Source: Escherichia phage slur07. From it: DNA of 64,000 nt. The position numbers and the translations under genes are program-made. The DNA lies in the sequence record NC_028780.1, one strand, 5' to 3'. This document shows, one piece after another, positions 18,469 through 62,740 of the stretch; within the stretch, counting starts at the first letter, position 1; the number at the start of each line of letters is the position of its first letter. The notes under the pieces are model-generated. The model was not told the origin of the DNA. It ran no database searches and worked only from the letters and a program-made list of their open reading frames with translations.

Positions 18469-18494
18469 GGGGACCTCTAGGGTCCCCTTTTTTA
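18469..18494 (+). terminator. intrinsic terminator after gene 32
   Basis: GGGGACC-TCTAG-GGTCCCC hairpin followed by TTTTTTATTT. Confidence 0.65.
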
Positions 18495-18518
18495 TTTCAA
18501 AAATTTTTTCACAAAACG

Positions 18519-18548
18519 GTTTACATACTACAAGGACTGTGGTACTAT
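18519..18548 (+). promoter_or_regulatory. T4-type early promoter (second copy of the 1329-1358 element)
   Basis: -35 GTTTACA, -10 TGgTACTAT; about 70 bp near-identical to 1298-1367. Confidence 0.55.
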
Positions 18549-18591
18549 ACAACTATCGGCAATACTGCTGATGATTAAAGAGGAAAACAAT

Positions 18592-19252: not shown

Positions 19253-19307
19253 TTTACAACGGGCTATGGTAATGATACTATAGCCTTATCAACTTGAGGA
19301 GAATAAA

Positions 19308-25712: not shown

Positions 25713-27300
<1,588 letters not shown>

Positions 27301-27303
27301 GTT

Positions 27304-27333
27304 GTTTACAAGTCCCTCGTGTTGTGTTATAGT
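27304..27333 (+). promoter_or_regulatory. early promoter (repeat family 2, copy A)
   Basis: -35 GTTTACA 27304-27310, 17-bp spacer, TGtTATAGT extended -10; 54 bp with one mismatch to 43120-43173. Confidence 0.5.
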
Positions 27334-27364
27334 AGTCTTACTAACATAACATGAGGACTTTATG

Positions 27365-27868
27365 ATGGATTTGCAGCTTATTACTACTGAAATGGTCGTT
27401 GAAGCATACGGTGATACTACAGATGGGATTTCTGTATTTAAAGGAAATCGGCGAGTTGGATATATCACCGATCTTAAGAAAGATTTAGCTAAGCAAGTCA
27501 AGCGGAAAACGACCATTAAAGAATATCGAAATCGTCGTCTTGAGCAAGCCCGTGATATGCTTCCTGATGCAGTTGAGGAGATGAAAGTCTTTTTAGAAAA
27601 TCAACTCGCTAAGTATGATTGTGAAGTGTTCATTAATCAGACTCAACCTAATGTTCATATCAATAGCTGTAAATGCTATATTATCGTTAATCCTTTAACG
27701 GGAAAACATCGTCTTGGAATTAGTAATCCAAATCGTAGCGCATCGGATATGGCAGAAGATGTTGCGGCATGCTTTAAAATTTCTAAATCTCCAGCTGAAC
27801 ATCATATTTTAATTAACGGTCTTTCTCAAGACGATATTATAGAGGTTATTAAAACTTTATGCAATTAA
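27365..27868 (+). CDS. alc: Alc-like protein (terminates transcription on cytosine DNA)
   Basis: 167 aa at the T4 alc position between gene 63 and pseT.3; call rests on position and length. Confidence 0.6.
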   Translation: MDLQLITTEMVVEAYGDTTDGISVFKGNRRVGYITDLKKDLAKQVKRKTTIKEYRNRRLEQARDMLPDAVEEMKVFLENQLAKYDCEVFINQTQPNVHINSCKCYIIVNPLTGKHRLGISNPNRSASDMAEDVAACFKISKSPAEHHILINGLSQDDIIEVIKTLCN

Positions 27869-30607: not shown

Positions 30608-30669
30608 TAGTTTACTTTACAGTAGAGTTGTGATATTATGGCTCTACCAAACAAATGAGGAAATTGAAA

Positions 30670-31197
30670 ATGAGCGAATGGTTTGAAGAAGATAAGGTTT
30701 ATCGCTTTAAAGCTGGATATAAAGATATTTTTAATGAAACTTGCGGGGCTAATAAACGAATTGCTCAGTTTATTGGGGAAAATTCATTTAAAGTAAAAAT
30801 TGATCCCGCGAAAAATGTTATTAGCATTAAACGTGAAATTGACGATTACTGGTATAAAGCTGTTGATGTAATGGGTGAATGCTATAAAGATAGCCCATTA
30901 TTTTCAATTACTTATATGTCAGAATATTATTTTTTCGAAGAAGTTCAAAAAGATGATTCTGTCAGTAAATTTGAAATTAAAACTGATAAAGAAATTAAAT
31001 GGAAAGTAGTAGGTATTACTGGTTGTATGTTTTATATCTATGCTCAAACTGATACGAAGGAAGAAGCTAAAAAGAAAGCTCTAGAATATCTTGAAGAGTA
31101 TGAAGAAGGCCCGGTAATGATTACTCAAGATGCTGAATTAGTTTCTGTCAAATTAGTTAAAAACGTTGAAAGTAAGGAGCTGGGATCAACATGCTAA
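30670..31197 (+). CDS. hypothetical protein
   Basis: ORF with GAGGA about 10 nt before ATG 30670 (MSEWFEEDKVYRF...). Confidence 0.55.
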   Translation: MSEWFEEDKVYRFKAGYKDIFNETCGANKRIAQFIGENSFKVKIDPAKNVISIKREIDDYWYKAVDVMGECYKDSPLFSITYMSEYYFFEEVQKDDSVSKFEIKTDKEIKWKVVGITGCMFYIYAQTDTKEEAKKKALEYLEEYEEGPVMITQDAELVSVKLVKNVESKELGSTC

Positions 31198-34117: not shown

Positions 34118-34122
34118 GTTGA

Positions 34123-34147
34123 GGACTCCTTCGGGAGTCCTTTTTTA
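34123..34147 (+). terminator. intrinsic terminator with UUCG tetraloop
   Basis: GGACTCC-TTCG-GGAGTCC followed by TTTTTTATTTT. Confidence 0.7.
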
Positions 34148-34170
34148 TTTTCCAAAGATTGCATAAAGTT

Positions 34171-34204
34171 GTTTACAGTATAGCTCCTTTGTGATAGTAT
34201 TATC
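34171..34204 (+). promoter_or_regulatory. candidate early promoter
   Basis: -35 GTTTACA at 34171-34177 with downstream A/T-rich -10 candidates (TAGTAT/TATTAT). Confidence 0.4.
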
Positions 34205-34227
34205 TTACACAAACAAAGGAGAATAAA

Positions 34228-34560
34228 ATGAAAACGATTAATCTGAACGCTGCAGTTAAAACTAAATGCTTCAATGGTAAATATGATGAAACTATGTGGT
34301 TCTTAATGGCAGTTGAAGGTGATATTATTGAAGTAGAAACAACAGAAGGTATGGGAACAGATTTCACCTTTACAATTCAAGTTCATAATTTCTTTACTGG
34401 TTGGATTTATGAATTGAATACAGTAATCGTTGGAAAAATTGAACAAAATGAATTAGGCGAATGGCATTATGTTACAGCTCGCCAACGTGCAGAACGCTTA
34501 ATTGAGAAGATGAAAAAAGTTGGTAAACTTGACATGCAGCATTGGAAAGTAGTAAAATAA
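34228..34560 (+). CDS. hypothetical protein
   Basis: 110-aa ORF with SD AAGGAG upstream. Confidence 0.55.
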   Translation: MKTINLNAAVKTKCFNGKYDETMWFLMAVEGDIIEVETTEGMGTDFTFTIQVHNFFTGWIYELNTVIVGKIEQNELGEWHYVTARQRAERLIEKMKKVGKLDMQHWKVVK

Positions 34561-34562
34561 TT

Positions 34563-34603
34563 GTTTACTTTGGTACAGGATATGATATTATATACCTGTA
34601 CCG
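34563..34603 (+). promoter_or_regulatory. early promoter embedded in a stem-loop
   Basis: -35 GTTTAC at 34563-34568; 8-bp inverted repeat GGTACAGG (34572-34579) / CCTGTACC (34595-34602) with the A/T-rich -10 candidate TATTAT in the loop. Confidence 0.45.
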
Positions 34604-34627
34604 CAATTAAACATCTTGGAGAATAAA

Positions 34628-34993
34628 ATGAACTACATCAACTTTGAACGTAAATATGTTTCTAATGGTATTGCAGGTTCTATTGATACTATTTGCCTCT
34701 GGAAACATCAAAACGGATCAGTATGCGAAATTGAACAGTATATGACTCCTAACTACGTTTATATGCGATTTGAAAACGGTATCACGGTTTCAATCACGAT
34801 GGAAGGTTCCAACTTCAAAATCGCTCTGGATGATGATTTCCGTCAACGCGATTTAGGGACTCATCCTTGCTGGAATGGTGCTAATCGTAAACTCTTAGTT
34901 AAAACTTGGATTCGTCATATTCTGAGTAACAGAGCTAAACCTGAGCATCTTGAAGCAATCTTTGATGTAGTTCTTAACGAATTTGATATTTAA
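34628..34993 (+). CDS. hypothetical protein
   Basis: ORF with GGAG SD before ATG 34628 (MNYINFERKYVS...). Confidence 0.55.
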   Translation: MNYINFERKYVSNGIAGSIDTICLWKHQNGSVCEIEQYMTPNYVYMRFENGITVSITMEGSNFKIALDDDFRQRDLGTHPCWNGANRKLLVKTWIRHILSNRAKPEHLEAIFDVVLNEFDI

Positions 34994-35033: not shown

Positions 35034-35321
35034 ATGTTTATGACTACTTATTTTGATACCCGCAAAAATTTCTGTGAAGTTGTTTTCTCAAAGGCACCTA
35101 AAGACCTTCCTGCACATTTGCAACCTACTAGCGAATCGATTAAAAACTACGTTGATGTGGTTTGTCCTTTAGAATTCCGTACAGTAAATGGGCGTGATAC
35201 TTTAGCTATCACTAAACTCAATCGCGAAATTGACATTGACCCTTCAATTGCGCGTGAAATTAACATTTCTGATATTGGCGGCGGTAATGTTAAATCGCAC
35301 GGTTTTCAGATGAGGTTCTAA
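35034..35321 (+). CDS. hypothetical protein
   Basis: 95-aa ORF with SD GAGGA upstream. Confidence 0.5.
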   Translation: MFMTTYFDTRKNFCEVVFSKAPKDLPAHLQPTSESIKNYVDVVCPLEFRTVNGRDTLAITKLNREIDIDPSIAREINISDIGGGNVKSHGFQMRF

Positions 35322-35518
35322 TGAAATTCTTTTTAGGTCAAACTGTTGAATTAAAGGGAGTTGGTATACCTGGATTAATTTCTAAGGTTCTACCTCCATT
35401 TAAATGGAGTGGTATTCAAATAAAAGAGGCTTATATTGTTTCCTGGGTAGATGGAAATGAAGACCTTCGTATGGGTGATGAATTATCTCCTATCTACGGA
35501 TTAAAGGAATTAGTATGA
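35321..35518 (+). CDS. hypothetical protein
   Basis: 65-aa ORF. Confidence 0.45.
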   Translation: MKFFLGQTVELKGVGIPGLISKVLPPFKWSGIQIKEAYIVSWVDGNEDLRMGDELSPIYGLKELV

Positions 35519-38968: not shown

Positions 38969-41059
38969 ATGATGGAACTCATTACAGAATTATTTGACGA
39001 AGATACTACTCTTCCGATTACAAACTTAAATCCAAAGAAGAAAATACCACAAATTTTTTCAGTTCATGTTGATGATGCAATTGAACAACCAGGCTTTCGT
39101 TTATGTACCTATACATCTGGAGGTGATACTAATCGCGATTTAAAAATGGGCGATAAAATGATGCATATCGTTCCTTTTACATTAACTGCAAAGGGGTCAA
39201 TTGCTAAATTAAAGGGTCTTGGACCGAGTCCTATTAATTACATCAATTCAGTATTTACCGTAGCAATGCAAACAATGAAACAGTATAAAATTGATGCATG
39301 TATGCTACGCATTCTTAAGTCTAAAACCGCCGGTCAAGCTCGACAAATTCAACTTATTGCTGATAGACTTATCCGTAGTCGTTCAGGTGGCAGATACGTC
39401 CTTCTTAAGGAACTCTGGGATTACGATAAAAAGTATGCATATATTCTTATACATCGTAAAAACGTATCACTAGAAGACATTCCAGGAGTTCCAGAAATTA
39501 GTACTGAACTCTTTACTAAGGTTGAATCGAAGGTCGGTGATGTTTATATCAATAAAGATACTGGAGCCCAAGTAACTAAAAATGAGGCAATTGCAGCATC
39601 AATTGCACAAGAAAATGATAAACGTTCTGACCAAGCCGTAATCGTTAAAGTTAAAATTTCCCGTAGAGCAATTGCGCAAAGTCAATCATTGGAATCTTCT
39701 AGATTTGAAAGTGAATTATTCCAGAAGTATGAATCTACCGCAGCTAATTTCAATAAACCTGCTACCGCTCCTTTAATTCCCGAAGCAGAAGAAATGAAGC
39801 TTGGAATTAATTCATTAGCTTCTAAAACTAAGGCAGCAAAAATTATTGCTGAAGGAACTGCAGATGAACTTCATTATGACTATAAATTCTTTTCAAAAAG
39901 TGAGGTTAATGAAGTTTCTGAAAAAATTAAAGATGTAATTCTTAATGCGATTAAAAATGAACCAACTACTTCAATAAAATGTTTAGAGAAATACGCAGCA
40001 GCTGTTAATCAACTCTTTGAAGAATATAAAGATAATTGGCTTGATAAACATAATAAAACTCGTAAAGGGCAGCCAGATGAAGTCTGGGAAGAAATAACTA
40101 AAAATGCCTGGAATGCAGCAAAAACTAAATTCCTCAAAAGAATGATTTATAGTTTTTCTGGAATTGGTGCAGGTCCAATGATTGATATTACTATTGCCCG
40201 TGATGGTTCTAAATATACTCCATCACAAAAGCGCGGCATTAGAGAGTATTGTGGTTCAGGATATACTGACATCAATAATCTTCTTTTAGGTCGTTACAAT
40301 CCAGAACGATATGATGTAATGAGTGAAAAAGAAATTGAATCTGCTATAAATAATTTAGATTCAGCTTTTGAAAATGGTGACCGCATACCGGAAGGCATTA
40401 CAGTTTATCGTGCTCAAAGTATGACTGCTCCTATATACGAAGCGCTAGTTAAAAATAAAGTGTTCTATTTCAGAAATTTTGTATCTACTTCTTTAACTCC
40501 TATCATTTTTGGGCGTTTTGGAATTACACATGCTGGTATTGGTCTTTTAGAACCAGAAGCTCGTAATGAATTGACAGTTGATAAAAATGAAGAAGGAATA
40601 ACTATTAATCCAAACGAAATAAGAGCGTATAAAGAAAATCCTGAATACGTTAAAGTTCAAATAGGATGGGCAATTGATGGAGCTCATAAAGTTAATGTTG
40701 TATATCCAGGAAGTCTAGGAATAGCAACAGAAGCTGAAGTTATTCTACCGCGTGGATTGATGGTCAAAGTTAATAAAATAACTGATGCTTCTAATAATGA
40801 CGGAACCACGTCTAATAATACAAAACTCATTCAAGCTGAAGTTATGACCACCGAAGAACTCACCGAATCGGTAATCTATGACGGAGACCGTTTAATGGAA
40901 ACCGGCGAAGTAGTTGCAATGACAGGTGATATAGAAGATAGAGTTGACTTTGCATCATTTGTTTCATCAAATGTTAAACAGAAAGTAGAATCATCTCTTG
41001 GAATTATTGCGTCTTGCATAGATATTACAAACATGCCTTACAAGTTCGTTCAAGGATAA
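38969..41059 (+). CDS. alt: Alt ADP-ribosyltransferase (injected, modifies host RNA polymerase)
   Basis: 696 aa; N-terminus MELITELFDEDTTLPITNL matches T4 Alt; catalytic motifs YRAQS (Arg), FVSTS (STS), TEAEVILPRG (E-x-E). Confidence 0.9.
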   Translation: MMELITELFDEDTTLPITNLNPKKKIPQIFSVHVDDAIEQPGFRLCTYTSGGDTNRDLKMGDKMMHIVPFTLTAKGSIAKLKGLGPSPINYINSVFTVAMQTMKQYKIDACMLRILKSKTAGQARQIQLIADRLIRSRSGGRYVLLKELWDYDKKYAYILIHRKNVSLEDIPGVPEISTELFTKVESKVGDVYINKDTGAQVTKNEAIAASIAQENDKRSDQAVIVKVKISRRAIAQSQSLESSRFESELFQKYESTAANFNKPATAPLIPEAEEMKLGINSLASKTKAAKIIAEGTADELHYDYKFFSKSEVNEVSEKIKDVILNAIKNEPTTSIKCLEKYAAAVNQLFEEYKDNWLDKHNKTRKGQPDEVWEEITKNAWNAAKTKFLKRMIYSFSGIGAGPMIDITIARDGSKYTPSQKRGIREYCGSGYTDINNLLLGRYNPERYDVMSEKEIESAINNLDSAFENGDRIPEGITVYRAQSMTAPIYEALVKNKVFYFRNFVSTSLTPIIFGRFGITHAGIGLLEPEARNELTVDKNEEGITINPNEIRAYKENPEYVKVQIGWAIDGAHKVNVVYPGSLGIATEAEVILPRGLMVKVNKITDASNNDGTTSNNTKLIQAEVMTTEELTESVIYDGDRLMETGEVVAMTGDIEDRVDFASFVSSNVKQKVESSLGIIASCIDITNMPYKFVQG

Positions 41060-41062
41060 ATC

Positions 41063-43120
41063 ATGGAACTTATTACAGAATTATTTGACGGCGCTTCGGC
41101 GCCGGTTGTTAACTTAAATCCTAAGCATAAAATACCACAAATTTTTGCTATCCAAGCCGGCGAAGAAAGCGTGCTTCCTGGATTTAGATTTTGTACATAC
41201 ACCTCTGGTGGTGATACAAATAAAAACGTTAAGCCAGGCGATAAAATGATGCATATCGTAATGATAGGTGTCAATGAGAAACTATCATTAGTTAAGCTTA
41301 AAAACTTGGGTGGAAATCCAATTGGTGTCATTAATGCCGTTTTTGATACTGCTCTTCAAACAATGAAACAGTATAAAATCGACGCATGCCTATTCCGCGT
41401 ACTAAAGAGTAAAACAAATGGCGCAGCTCGTCAAATGCAAGTTATTGCTGACCGTTTAGTACGTACTAAAGGAGCAGGTCGATATGTTCTCTTAAAGGAA
41501 ATCTGGGACTATGATAAGAAATATGCATATATTATGGTTTACCGTAAAAATGCCAATTTAGAAGACATTCCAGGTGTACCTCCTATTTCAACTGAGTTAT
41601 TCACAAAAGTTGAATCAAAGGTTGGTGATGTTTATGTAGACGTTAAAACAGGTAATGCTGTTCCTAAAGCTGTCGCTGTTGCTGCTTCTATTGCTTTAGA
41701 AAATGATAAGCGCACTGATCAAGCTGTTATTCAGAAAACTAAAATTAGTCGTCGATTAGCAGCACAAGCTCAATATTCTACTGTTGATGCTTCACTTCAG
41801 GGTGATAGCTTCGCTGCCAAGAAATATCAAGAGTTTGAATCTAAAGTTCCGGTATATAAAGCAGAAGGACCAATGAACTCTGGCGTTATCCAGATTGGTT
41901 CAAACTTCAGCAAAGGAGCTATCGGTGGTATGAGAAGTGCTTCTCGTTTTAAATCTAATGATTATGAACTAGAAAGTTTCCGAAATCATATTGCATTGAC
42001 CCATGCACGTTTACGCGATCCATCTATCAAGCTGCAGAGCGATATAACATATCAAGGTTCTCAAGAATATTTAAAGAATAAAGAATTCTTTGATTATAAA
42101 ACTGATAAAATTTTAAGCGATCTTGCTGACATTAATATTTCTAATAGCTTTGATGTTATTAAGAAAATTATCAATGATTTAGTTAAAGATTCTAAAGCTA
42201 CATCAGATGAAAAGACAGCTATTATTCAATTTGTAATGAATGGCATTTATAAATTGATTAATGAATCTGCTGCTCAGGCATATGAATACGCAAGCACCGA
42301 AGTAACTCCAAAAGGACTGACTCAGGCTGAATCTGATGTAATTGAAGATTATTGTGCAGATTCATATGTTGAAATGAACTCGTTCCTTTTGGGTAAACCA
42401 GATTCTACCCGTGAAGAATACATGGAAAGAGCTATTAATCACATCGAGACGTTAGATTCTGCCTTTGCCAAAGGATCAGTTCTTCCTCCAGGAACTACAC
42501 TTTACCGTGGACAAGAAGTTACCTTTAAAACTTTGCGTCATAACATTGAAAACAAAATGTTCTATTTCAAGAACTTCGTATCGACATCACTTAAACCAAA
42601 TATCTTCGGTGAGCATGGTAAAAACTATATGGCTCTAGATGATTCCGGCGCAGTATTTTCTGGCGAAGGAGAAGGTTCCGTTGATGCAGAAGATTTAATG
42701 CATATGGGTAGTCATTCTACATATGCCAATGAAGATGCTGAAACTAGCGTAGGTATGGTAATTAAAGGGGCTGAGCGAATCAAAGTTATCGTTCCAGGTC
42801 ATTTATCAGGATTTCCATCAGAAGCTGAAGTTATTCTACCACGTGGAATTTTACTGAAGATTAATAAAGTAAGTACGTACTTTATGAAAGAAACTGCTTA
42901 TAACAAGTATCTAATCGAAGGTACAATCGTTCCTCCTTCTGAACAATTAGAGGAATCGGTATATGATGGCGACCATTTAATGGAAACTGGTGAAGTTCGT
43001 CCAATGGCTGGATTTAATCAATTCCTTGTAGAAGAATCAAAAGAAGAGGAAAACGAAGTTTCTCAAATCTTGGCTTCTTTGGTTAACATCAACGGAATGT
43101 CTAAAAAGTTCAAAATGTAG
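41063..43120 (+). CDS. Alt paralogue (second ADP-ribosyltransferase)
   Basis: 685 aa; same fold signature with YRGQ, FVSTS, SEAEVILPRG; conserved N-terminal third, divergent central region. Confidence 0.85.
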   Translation: MELITELFDGASAPVVNLNPKHKIPQIFAIQAGEESVLPGFRFCTYTSGGDTNKNVKPGDKMMHIVMIGVNEKLSLVKLKNLGGNPIGVINAVFDTALQTMKQYKIDACLFRVLKSKTNGAARQMQVIADRLVRTKGAGRYVLLKEIWDYDKKYAYIMVYRKNANLEDIPGVPPISTELFTKVESKVGDVYVDVKTGNAVPKAVAVAASIALENDKRTDQAVIQKTKISRRLAAQAQYSTVDASLQGDSFAAKKYQEFESKVPVYKAEGPMNSGVIQIGSNFSKGAIGGMRSASRFKSNDYELESFRNHIALTHARLRDPSIKLQSDITYQGSQEYLKNKEFFDYKTDKILSDLADINISNSFDVIKKIINDLVKDSKATSDEKTAIIQFVMNGIYKLINESAAQAYEYASTEVTPKGLTQAESDVIEDYCADSYVEMNSFLLGKPDSTREEYMERAINHIETLDSAFAKGSVLPPGTTLYRGQEVTFKTLRHNIENKMFYFKNFVSTSLKPNIFGEHGKNYMALDDSGAVFSGEGEGSVDAEDLMHMGSHSTYANEDAETSVGMVIKGAERIKVIVPGHLSGFPSEAEVILPRGILLKINKVSTYFMKETAYNKYLIEGTIVPPSEQLEESVYDGDHLMETGEVRPMAGFNQFLVEESKEEENEVSQILASLVNINGMSKKFKM

Positions 43121-43149
43121 TTTACAAGTCCCTCGTGTTGTGTTATAGT
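43120..43149 (+). promoter_or_regulatory. early promoter (repeat family 2, copy B)
   Basis: 54-bp near-identical copy of 27304-27357; -35 GTTTACA overlaps the TAG stop of the alt paralogue. Confidence 0.5.
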
Positions 43150-43180
43150 AGTCTTACTGACATAACATGAGGAACACAAA

Positions 43181-43471
43181 ATGAAATCTTCTTTACGCTT
43201 TTTAGGTCAAGAACTTGTAGTTGAAGGCGTTATTCCTGTTGATAATGCTTTTAATGAAGCAGTTTACGATGAATTTATTAAAATTTTTGGAACAGATAAA
43301 AAGTTCGGAATTTTTCCTTCTGAAAATTTTTCAAAGCCAGAACAGACTGAAAGTATTTTTCAGGGTGTAGTAACAGGTAAATTTGAGTCAGAAGCTCCGG
43401 TAAAAATTGAAGTTTATATTGAAGACAGTTTAGTTGCTTCAGTTTCTGCTTTCATTTCATTCCGTAAATAA
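43181..43471 (+). CDS. hypothetical protein
   Basis: 96-aa ORF with SD GAGGAA upstream. Confidence 0.5.
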   Translation: MKSSLRFLGQELVVEGVIPVDNAFNEAVYDEFIKIFGTDKKFGIFPSENFSKPEQTESIFQGVVTGKFESEAPVKIEVYIEDSLVASVSAFISFRK

Positions 43472-43477
43472 AAATAT

Positions 43478-43495
43478 GGGGACCGAAAGGTCCCC
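43478..43495 (-). terminator. hairpin terminator downstream of gene 54 (palindromic)
   Basis: GGGGACC-GAAA-GGTCCCC; U-rich tract on the minus-strand 3' side. Confidence 0.55.
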
Positions 43496-43499
43496 ATTG

Positions 43500-62493: not shown

Positions 62494-62740
62494 TATTCAT
62501 CATCCTCGTCTTCGTCATCTTCATCAGAGTCTTTGTCTTTTTTGTCGTCTTTATCATCACTATCTTCGTCTTCGTCATCATCCTCGTCATCAGGTTCTTC
62601 ACCTTCGATTAAGAAATTACGAGCGATAGCGATTTTTTCTTCTTTAATTAAATCAATCGTTCTTGCAGCCATGGCTTCAGCAAATAATTTACGAGCGGCT
62701 ACGAGGTCGTTTGATTTAATAGCTTCAATTAAACCTTCCA

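Follow-up and report, generated by a model that had tools for sequence, protein, structure and literature searches.

The intergenic regions that precede alc (inhibitor of host transcription) and alt.-3 (conserved hypothetical protein) in Escherichia phage slur07 carry nearly the same 54-bp element, which we interpret as a self-contained early promoter nested in a hairpin that buries the Shine-Dalgarno (SD) sequence of the downstream gene. In this interpretation, to which we give a probability of about 0.6, the element would act as a gate that permits translation only from transcripts of its own promoter, would be ancestral at alc, and would have been transplanted to alt.-3. All positions are those of the window, i.e., the whole stretch of 64,000 nucleotides that was analysed (NC_028780.1). 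The window belongs to Tequatrovirus, its closest relatives being Shigella phage JK38 and phage TB37.

Two copies of a 54-bp repeat

By exact pattern search, the 54-mer GTTTACAAGTCCCTCGTGTTGTGTTATAGTAGTCTTACT(A/G)ACATAACATGAGGA was found at only two places in the window, both on the + strand (Table 1), and it was absent from 100 shuffles of the window. The two copies are identical at 53 of the 54 positions, the sole difference being position 40 (A in copy 1, G in copy 2); repeat-finding extended the repeat to 57 nt with 96% identity. Copy 1 starts 4 nt past the TAA stop codon of rnlA (27298-27300) and ends 4 nt short of the alc ATG (27362). Copy 2 starts at the last base of the TAG stop codon of the second alt paralogue (43118-43120) and ends 7 nt short of the alt.-3 ATG (43181). 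The two 60-nt intergenic regions consist almost wholly of the repeat, and the identity of the two copies falls to chance level directly beyond it on both sides. At the 38 positions outside the promoter consensus the copies are 97% identical, whereas all the remaining pairs of early promoters in the window average 34% (sd 13%); the likeness of the two copies far exceeds the common promoter consensus. The Rfam search (18 kb, E <= 1) gave no match at either copy.

The leader of each copy includes an AUG (inside CAUGAGGA), which opens a mini-ORF of 4 or 5 codons (MRTL* and MRNTK*, at 27351-27365 and 43167-43184). The UGA stop of the mini-ORF overlaps the downstream start codon (AUGA) at both copies despite differing post-SD sequences, an overlap that may be a coincidence.

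Table 1. Features of the two repeat copies and their neighbouring genes (window positions)
Feature	Position	Strand	Remarks
Copy 1 (GTTTACA…GAGGA)	27304-27357	+	rnlA-alc intergenic regulatory element
Copy 1, -35 hexamer TTTACA	27305-27310	+	preceding G gives T4 early GTTTACA
Copy 1, extended -10, TGT + TATAGT	27325-27333 (hexamer 27328-27333)	+	within hairpin 5' arm
Copy 1, predicted transcription start, A	27340	+	7 nt past -10; from promoter geometry
Copy 1, read-through RNA hairpin	27311-27359	+	predicted fold, -23 to -23.9 kcal/mol, z -6.4 to -6.8
Copy 1, hairpin parts	5' arm 27311-27334; loop 27335-27338; 3' arm 27339-27359	+	5' arm, spacer and -10; 3' arm, leader and SD
alc SD, GAGGA	27353-27357	+	paired with CCCTC of promoter spacer in hairpin
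rnlA (gene 63, RNA ligase 1)	26176-27300	+	gene preceding copy 1, from which read-through RNA comes
alc (inhibitor of host transcription)	27362-27868	+	ATGs at 27362 and 27365; T4 annotation uses the second, 27365
Copy 2 (GTTTACA…GAGGA)	43120-43173	+	alt paralogue-alt.-3 intergenic regulatory element
Copy 2, -35 hexamer TTTACA	43121-43126	+	
Copy 2, extended -10, TGT + TATAGT	43141-43149 (hexamer 43144-43149)	+	
Copy 2, predicted transcription start, A	43156	+	from promoter geometry
Copy 2, read-through RNA hairpin	43128-43175	+	predicted fold, -23.0 kcal/mol, z -5.7 to -5.9, SD paired
alt.-3 SD, GAGGA	43169-43173	+	paired in copy 2 hairpin
Second Alt-like ADP-ribosyltransferase paralogue	41063-43120	+	upstream gene of copy 2
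alt.-3 homologue (96 aa, conserved hypothetical)	43181-43471	+	downstream gene of copy 2, predicted to be driven by it
Bidirectional terminator hairpin	43476-43497	.	closes alt.-3 unit, faces gene 54; terminator scan

An early promoter within the repeat

Both copies read G TTTACA, 17 nt, TGT TATAGT, and thereby show every element of a T4-type early promoter (-35 GTTTAC(A/T), spacer of 17 +/- 1 nt, TGn, TAnnnT), which is followed in the repeat by a leader of roughly 25 nt and the SD sequence. A generic sigma-70 scan of the window detected 68 sites against 71.3 in shuffles, showing no enrichment, and therefore only the T4-specific pattern was taken as informative; the promoter of the copies (TTTACA-17-TATAGT, with upstream TG) nevertheless ranked among the top-scoring sites of this independent scan. 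The T4-specific pattern (G TTTAC[A/T], 16-18 nt, TAnnnT) detected about eleven early-promoter candidates in the window, all on the + strand. Both copies are located on the strand of all the other candidates and directly upstream of early-class genes: in the T4 omics classification (PMC9697503 supplement), alc and alt.-3 are of the early RNA/early protein class, and rnlA, located upstream, is of the early RNA/late protein class.

The canonical T4 early promoters (Pe; Hinton 2010, PMC2988021) are alike in the GTTTACA -35, the 17-nt spacer, the TGn and the TAnnnT-type -10, and further in the A-rich upstream DNA and a conserved CTTAC-like start region. Unlike typical early-promoter pairs, the two copies are nearly identical off the consensus as well and carry an anti-SD sequence in the spacer. 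A search of the literature for the promoter names Pe136 and Pe123 and for the sequence itself, with the older T4 promoter literature outside its scope, gave no match.

A predicted hairpin enclosing the promoter and the SD sequence

The element was folded as RNA from just past the -35 to the ATG. A hairpin of about 21 bp was predicted, and none of 300 shuffles was as stable. All four core bases of the SD sequence are paired with bases upstream of any possible start from the embedded promoter. The -10-proximal part alone (27320-27357) forms a modest hairpin with z about -2, the strong signal being obtained only when the whole segment from spacer to ATG is folded. The leaders folded from the predicted start are unstructured, with z +1.1 for copy 1 (27340 to 27400) and z +0.4 for copy 2. 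Since the -10 hexamer lies within the 5' arm, transcripts of the embedded promoter cannot contain this arm, whereas read-through RNA does. Read-through RNA is to be expected, because neither the rnlA-alc nor the alt-alt.-3 interval contains a terminator predicted by the scan. The hairpin includes three G.U pairs, G16.U49, G21.U44 and U25.G40 (element numbering), indicating a structure of the + strand RNA rather than of the DNA.

The 54-bp cassette with one mismatch and its sigma70-type promoter, as described in the original prediction, were thus both confirmed, the former by exact pattern search and the latter by the T4-specific pattern together with the independent scan. The imperfect inverted repeat that it had noticed around the -10 region is also real, and turned out on RNA folding to be far larger than stated, taking in the SD sequence. 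Two other candidate roles of the hairpin were rejected: a terminator, since no U-tract follows the hairpin in copy 2 or in other genera, and a target of RegB (GGAG), since the SD sequence is GAGGA and no GGAG is present.

Proposed translational gating of alc and alt.-3

In T4, the SD sequences of e (lysozyme), soc, 49 and I-TevI are buried in long read-through transcripts, which are translated poorly, while RNA begun at the embedded promoter is without the 5' strand and does undergo translation (Uzan and Miller 2010, PMC3014915). By analogy with these genes, we infer translational gating of alc and alt.-3. RNA reading through from rnlA or from the alt paralogue would fold into the hairpin and bury the SD sequence, and RNA begun at the embedded promoter would start past the -10, lack the 5' arm and leave the SD sequence free. 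Alc and Alt.-3 would then be translated only from their own early-promoter transcripts, and hence only while early promoters are active. The early RNA/early protein class of alc and alt.-3, as against the early RNA/late protein class of rnlA, is consistent with this proposal.

As in the four T4 genes, the SD sequence lies here in a stable helix, of which the 5' strand is upstream of or within the promoter; the promoter is located in the DNA of the 5' strand, and the structure is conserved in relatives, except for Mosigvirus and the Tegunavirus-type elements. In contrast, the promoter embedded in e, soc, 49 and I-TevI is a late promoter and expression is delayed, while here an early sigma-70 promoter is embedded, and translation is predicted to be confined to the early period. 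The review of these cases (PMC3014915) mentions neither alc nor a case of this kind for alt.-3 or for an early promoter, the older T4 literature being outside the scope of this comparison.

Conservation and covariation of the hairpin at alc

At the rnlA-alc junction of other genera, an early promoter is present at the same position, and its spacer pairs with the leader and SD sequence in Dhakavirus JS10 (z -4.7), Marfavirus (z -6.5) and Karamvirus (z -7.3). The sequences of the arms differ, being UCUCCUCAU/AUGAGGAGA in Dhakavirus JS10, CCUCGUUUGUU/AACAAACGAGG in Marfavirus and UCUCCAUUUGGUU/AACCAAAUGGAGA in Karamvirus. From 41 IMG/VR loci encoding Alc relatives, 30 distinct alc elements were taken, most of which fold at z -3.4 to -7.9. 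With no folding program involved, an exact complement of the SD sequence was detected within 8 nt past GTTTACA (<=8 nt) in 21 of the 30 elements.

Alignment of the 30 raw elements by MAFFT followed by RNAalifold gave no consensus structure, because the 3' arms are out of register in a sequence-only alignment; a landmark-anchored pairing test and an ungapped alignment of the arms were used in its place. In the landmark-anchored test, the 8 positions directly behind the anti-SD sequence and the 8 positions preceding the SD sequence were paired at 84.5% within the same sequence but at 58.8% between sequences (0 of 10,000 permutations). In the arm alignment 87.3% of positions were paired, compared with 69.0 +/- 2.2% in shuffles and 40-56% in slid-partner controls. 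The covariation score of the arms was 0.488 against 0.18 in shuffles (0 of 500), with 9 of the 12 pairs changed on both sides, although four outer pairs are selected by construction and sequence kinship inflates such tests.

In the Tegunavirus-type alc elements and in L064, the hairpin spans the -10 and stops before the SD sequence, and no hairpin was found for Mosigvirus alc. SD occlusion is missing in these lineages, and the gate would therefore be dispensable. Judged from these comparisons, the SD-occluding hairpin appears to be ancestral at alc and to have been kept with compensatory changes across many T4-like genera.

The hairpin could instead serve RNA processing or stability, for instance through RNase III-type cleavage between the rnlA and alc messages or as a 3' protective stem-loop for the upstream mRNA. 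A nearly continuous helix of about 21 bp has roughly the size of an RNase III substrate, a conserved hairpin without the SD sequence is found in the Tegunavirus-type and some other elements, and dyads over the -10 but not the SD sequence are present at other early promoters (19253, 30611 and 34564). We nevertheless regard this role as rather unlikely, since the exact anti-SD sequence stands right behind the -35 in those 21 of 30 alc elements and most lineages have the whole SD sequence paired, a feature that processing by itself would not call for.

Origin of the alt.-3 copy

At the alt-alt.-3 junction of Dhaka-, Mosig-, Marfa- and Karamvirus, an early promoter is present at the same position but with a different interior (ACACCACAAGGATGTGG TACTAT and variants), and these native alt.-3 promoters show no significant structure (z -2.2 to +0.4). 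When alc and alt.-3 elements were matched by contig, giving 16 distinct genome pairs, the same element was found at both loci only in Tequatrovirus (identity 0.81-0.89, both folded). In the 12 pairs from outside Tequatrovirus, the alt.-3 element is unfolded (z -2.3 to +0.8) and the alc element is folded in 11 of the 12 (z -3.6 to -7.4), the identity between the two being 0.57-0.84 compared with a background of 0.59 +/- 0.06 for unrelated early promoters. The Tequatrovirus element is closest to the Dhakavirus alc element (77-79%). Read parsimoniously, these comparisons point to a replacement of the native alt.-3 promoter by the alc element in the ancestor of Tequatrovirus. Ectopic recombination probably brought about the transfer, with the GTTTACA and ...ATGAGGA ends common to both elements as anchors.

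In a Dhakavirus-like genome, IMGVR_UViG_2706795356 (L062 for alc, L087 for alt.-3), the 29 nt CCTTACACAAACATGAGGAGAACATTATG up to and including the ATG are identical at both loci, while the 5' halves with the promoter spacers differ between the loci and the alc hairpin is retained. It appears that the alc and alt.-3 loci exchanged part of their sequence here in a separate event. In Mosigvirus, alt.-3-type promoters, 80% identical, are present at both loci. Taken together, the two cases suggest that the alc and alt.-3 loci may exchange repeatedly.

Two further sequence resemblances were noticed. In Mosigvirus L031 (JS09), at 575-660, and L032 (LF82-4), the -10-to-ATG part of the alt.-3 copy is located upstream of an unrelated gene, ndd.1, the stretch including 10 nt past the SD sequence (TATAGTAGTCCTACTGAAACATGAGGAACACAAAATG). 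Within the window, the N-terminal coding region of alt.-3 (43198-43231) resembles that of a gp30.5-like ORF at 35321-35518 (35329-35362), with 71% identity over 34 nt; the two may possibly form a small paralogous family.

Distribution and variation within Tequatrovirus

A 60-nt query matched 995 places in 498 records, i.e., two per genome, T4 being among them, and no matching record was found outside Tequatrovirus; with a longer query from copy 2, other genera gave only partial matches of lower identity. Scanning IMG/VR with the exact pattern, and both IMG/VR and metagenomes with a degenerate one, added few genomes, the degenerate pattern being ascertainment-biased. The two sites are the same two junctions in every genome directly examined. 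In T4 (NC_000866), the copies are located at 136,280-136,339, upstream of alc, and at about 123,033-123,090, upstream of alt.-3, and the A/G difference at position 40 is swapped between the loci relative to the window.

Among 17 haplotypes from 12 isolates and several contigs, there were zero fixed differences between the two loci. Paralogous differences (per 54 nt) were 2.75 within genomes and 2.95 between genomes, equal to the orthologous differences of 2.55-3.27. Copies within one genome are no more alike than copies between genomes (permutation p = 0.35), and thus frequent recent gene conversion is not needed. Five variants recur at the two loci (hypergeometric P between 0.006 and 0.09, according to how many sites are taken as free), an excess that is marginal with constrained sites left out (P = 0.03-0.09), and the ESh36 alc haplotype and the T2 alt.-3 haplotype have 4 variants in common.

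Most of the variants are neutral with respect to the structure, including C-to-U opposite G (positions 11, 12 and 15), G-to-A opposite U (16 and 40), A-to-G opposite U (54), and changes in the loop or bulge (13, 27 and 32-34). Four variants break pairs without compensation, at positions 18, 19 (twice) and 29 (G18A, T19A/C and G29A). The inner stem is retained in most Tequatrovirus haplotypes, and the leader with the 3' arm (positions 35-53) is invariant except for position 40. A constraint on structure and promoter that acts on both loci accounts for the conservation as well as for the variants in common; gene conversion may be going on, but it need not be invoked.

The lack of fixed locus differences, the equality of paralogous and orthologous divergence, the five variants at both loci and the 4 variants common to the ESh36 and T2 haplotypes also speak for a simpler explanation. 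The repeat would then be merely a duplicated strong promoter and ribosome-binding site, kept by purifying selection on promoter strength and/or by occasional gene conversion, its dyad being incidental and without a role in RNA structure. We give this explanation only a small chance, because it leaves unexplained the arm covariation across genera at alc and the folding z of about -6. In addition, the copies within genomes are not closer to each other, so that frequent recent conversion is not indicated, and the shared variants are mostly structure-neutral, as a common structural constraint predicts. A DNA-level cruciform or a protein operator overlapping the promoter, for joint shut-off of the two early promoters, would suit the dyad symmetry centred near the -10 and the identical sequence at two co-expressed genes, but is very unlikely, since the three G.U pairs are C.A mismatches on the other strand, the C-to-T and G-to-A polymorphisms preserve wobble pairs of RNA only, and the arm sequences vary freely between genera, unlike a sequence-specific operator.

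Other early promoters and repeats in the window

Several other early promoters of the window are associated with dyads, terminators or variable genes. For the promoters at 19253, 30611 and 34564, a dyad puts the -10 in or near the hairpin loop (z -4.3, -2.5 and -3.5, respectively) without involvement of the SD sequence; the Tegunavirus alc and Mosigvirus ndd.1 promoters likewise have the -10 in or beside a hairpin loop, without the SD sequence. A dyad over the -10 may be common to T4-type early promoters in general.

The promoter at 30611 directly precedes an ORF (30655-31197, 180 aa) that is present in teqdroes, phiD1, Sf21 and PP01 and absent from T4, T2, UFV-AREG1, JK38, ESh36, P8 and SHFML-11. 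Within 34121-34628, the order is a terminator hairpin (34121-34142), an early promoter (34172), a gene 30.8-like ORF (34228-34560) and another early promoter (34564); this ORF is missing in T2 and is replaced in JK38 and teqdroes. The spacer of the 34172 promoter is paired with the SD sequence (-14.6 kcal/mol, z -4.35), and this promoter is, as far as the predicted fold goes, a second example of the promoter-in-hairpin architecture.

Two early-promoter regions at 1295-1367 and 18485-18557 form a pair of 73 nt with 88% identity, each with a terminator T-run, an upstream element rich in A/T, and GTTTACA...TACTAT; with its terminator tail plus promoter, this pair looks more PeSL-like than the repeat upstream of alc and alt.-3. 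The tandem alt paralogues (38969-43120; 696 and 685 aa) contain direct repeats of five families at a spacing of about 2.09 kb. About 1.7 kb of the second paralogue (window about 41411-43100) is missing from T4 and ESh36, which leaves alt.-1/alt.-2; the blastn alignments on the two sides of the deletion share 9 nt of T4 sequence. A cluster of short direct repeats of the TCATC/GTCTTC type is located at 62497-62603, presumably encoding an acidic low-complexity stretch on the other strand.

Comparison with PeSL cassettes

Promoter-early stem-loop (PeSL) cassettes of T4-type phages combine a strong early promoter with a stem-loop terminator that directly precedes it; many copies are dispersed over hyperplastic regions, where they adjoin indels or replacements (Arbiol 2010, PMC2839356; Comeau 2014, PMC4122927). 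The original prediction had compared the repeat to such cassettes, as a possible mark of the recombination boundaries of imported modules. Both copies do have a strong sigma-70-like early promoter with the SD sequence and ATG at the 3' end, and the repeat is likewise a short intergenic unit of early promoter, stem-loop, SD sequence and ATG, exchangeable as a regulatory unit by recombination. Its identity over 54-57 bp exceeds the roughly 50 bp that T4 recombination needs (PMC2839356), and the cassette itself has apparently been exchanged between loci. Other early promoters of the window do flank ORFs of variable presence (30655-31197 and 34228-34560), in addition to the unit of terminator and promoter at 34121-34200 and the 73-nt promoter pair at 1295/18485.

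Unlike in PeSLs, however, the stem-loop of the repeat encloses the promoter and the SD sequence in place of forming an upstream terminator, and the element exists in two copies only, both at conserved gene junctions. The 64 nt upstream of each copy show no more folding stability than shuffles (z -0.5 and -0.2), no terminator-like site was predicted upstream of either copy by the terminator scan, and the stop codon of the upstream gene abuts the -35. In a breakpoint map of 11 relatives (T4, T2, UFV-AREG1, JK38, ESh36, teqdroes, phiD1, P8, Sf21, PP01 and SHFML-11), no breakpoint was detected at either junction, the nearest event being the T4/ESh36 deletion within the second alt paralogue, whose end at 43101 lies 19 bp before copy 2. 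Conservation across genera was seen for the neighbouring genes, namely rnlA, alc, alt, alt.-3 and gene 54. Moreover, recombination between the direct copies would remove 15.8 kb including genes 30 and 31. A PeSL-type mobile promoter/terminator cassette marking the boundaries of imported modules is thus a highly improbable explanation of the repeat.

Two of the checks that the original prediction had proposed agree with this view: the search for further copies gave none beyond two per genome, and comparison of gene content detected no variable block at either junction. These are the very outcomes it had named as speaking against module boundaries, and that idea therefore fails. What remains of its proposal of modular shuffling is a regulatory unit that appears to have moved between loci, and not the shuffling of gene modules. 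PeSL-like behaviour exists elsewhere in the genome but not at this cassette, and the combination of promoter and stem-loop is insufficient for the annotation of a PeSL.

Implications for the control of early gene expression

A wider proposal can be offered tentatively: the element could be a portable gate, dependent on its own promoter and confining Alc synthesis to the period of early-promoter activity, which was conserved by compensatory evolution, is present also at gene 30.8, and was repeatedly exchanged between alc and alt.-3, as the whole element in Tequatrovirus, as the leader half in the Dhakavirus-like genome and possibly in the reverse direction in Mosigvirus. If this is true, Alc and the uncharacterised Alt.-3 would be under selection for joint regulation, and a functional link between the two proteins is suggested. 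It would also mean that an entire intergenic regulatory unit can pass from one conserved gene to another, a process distinct from the PeSL-mediated shuffling of ORFs.

T4 is the reference system for how phages time the expression of their genes. Its known promoter-in-hairpin switches, those of e, soc, 49 and I-TevI, all hold translation back until the late promoters become active, and the early version proposed here would be their mirror image. The mechanism of early shut-off is not completely understood (PMC3014915). If the proposed gate operates, translation of the host-shutoff protein would stop once the early promoters are silenced, despite the continuing presence of read-through RNA, and a post-transcriptional layer would be added to the shut-off of early gene expression.
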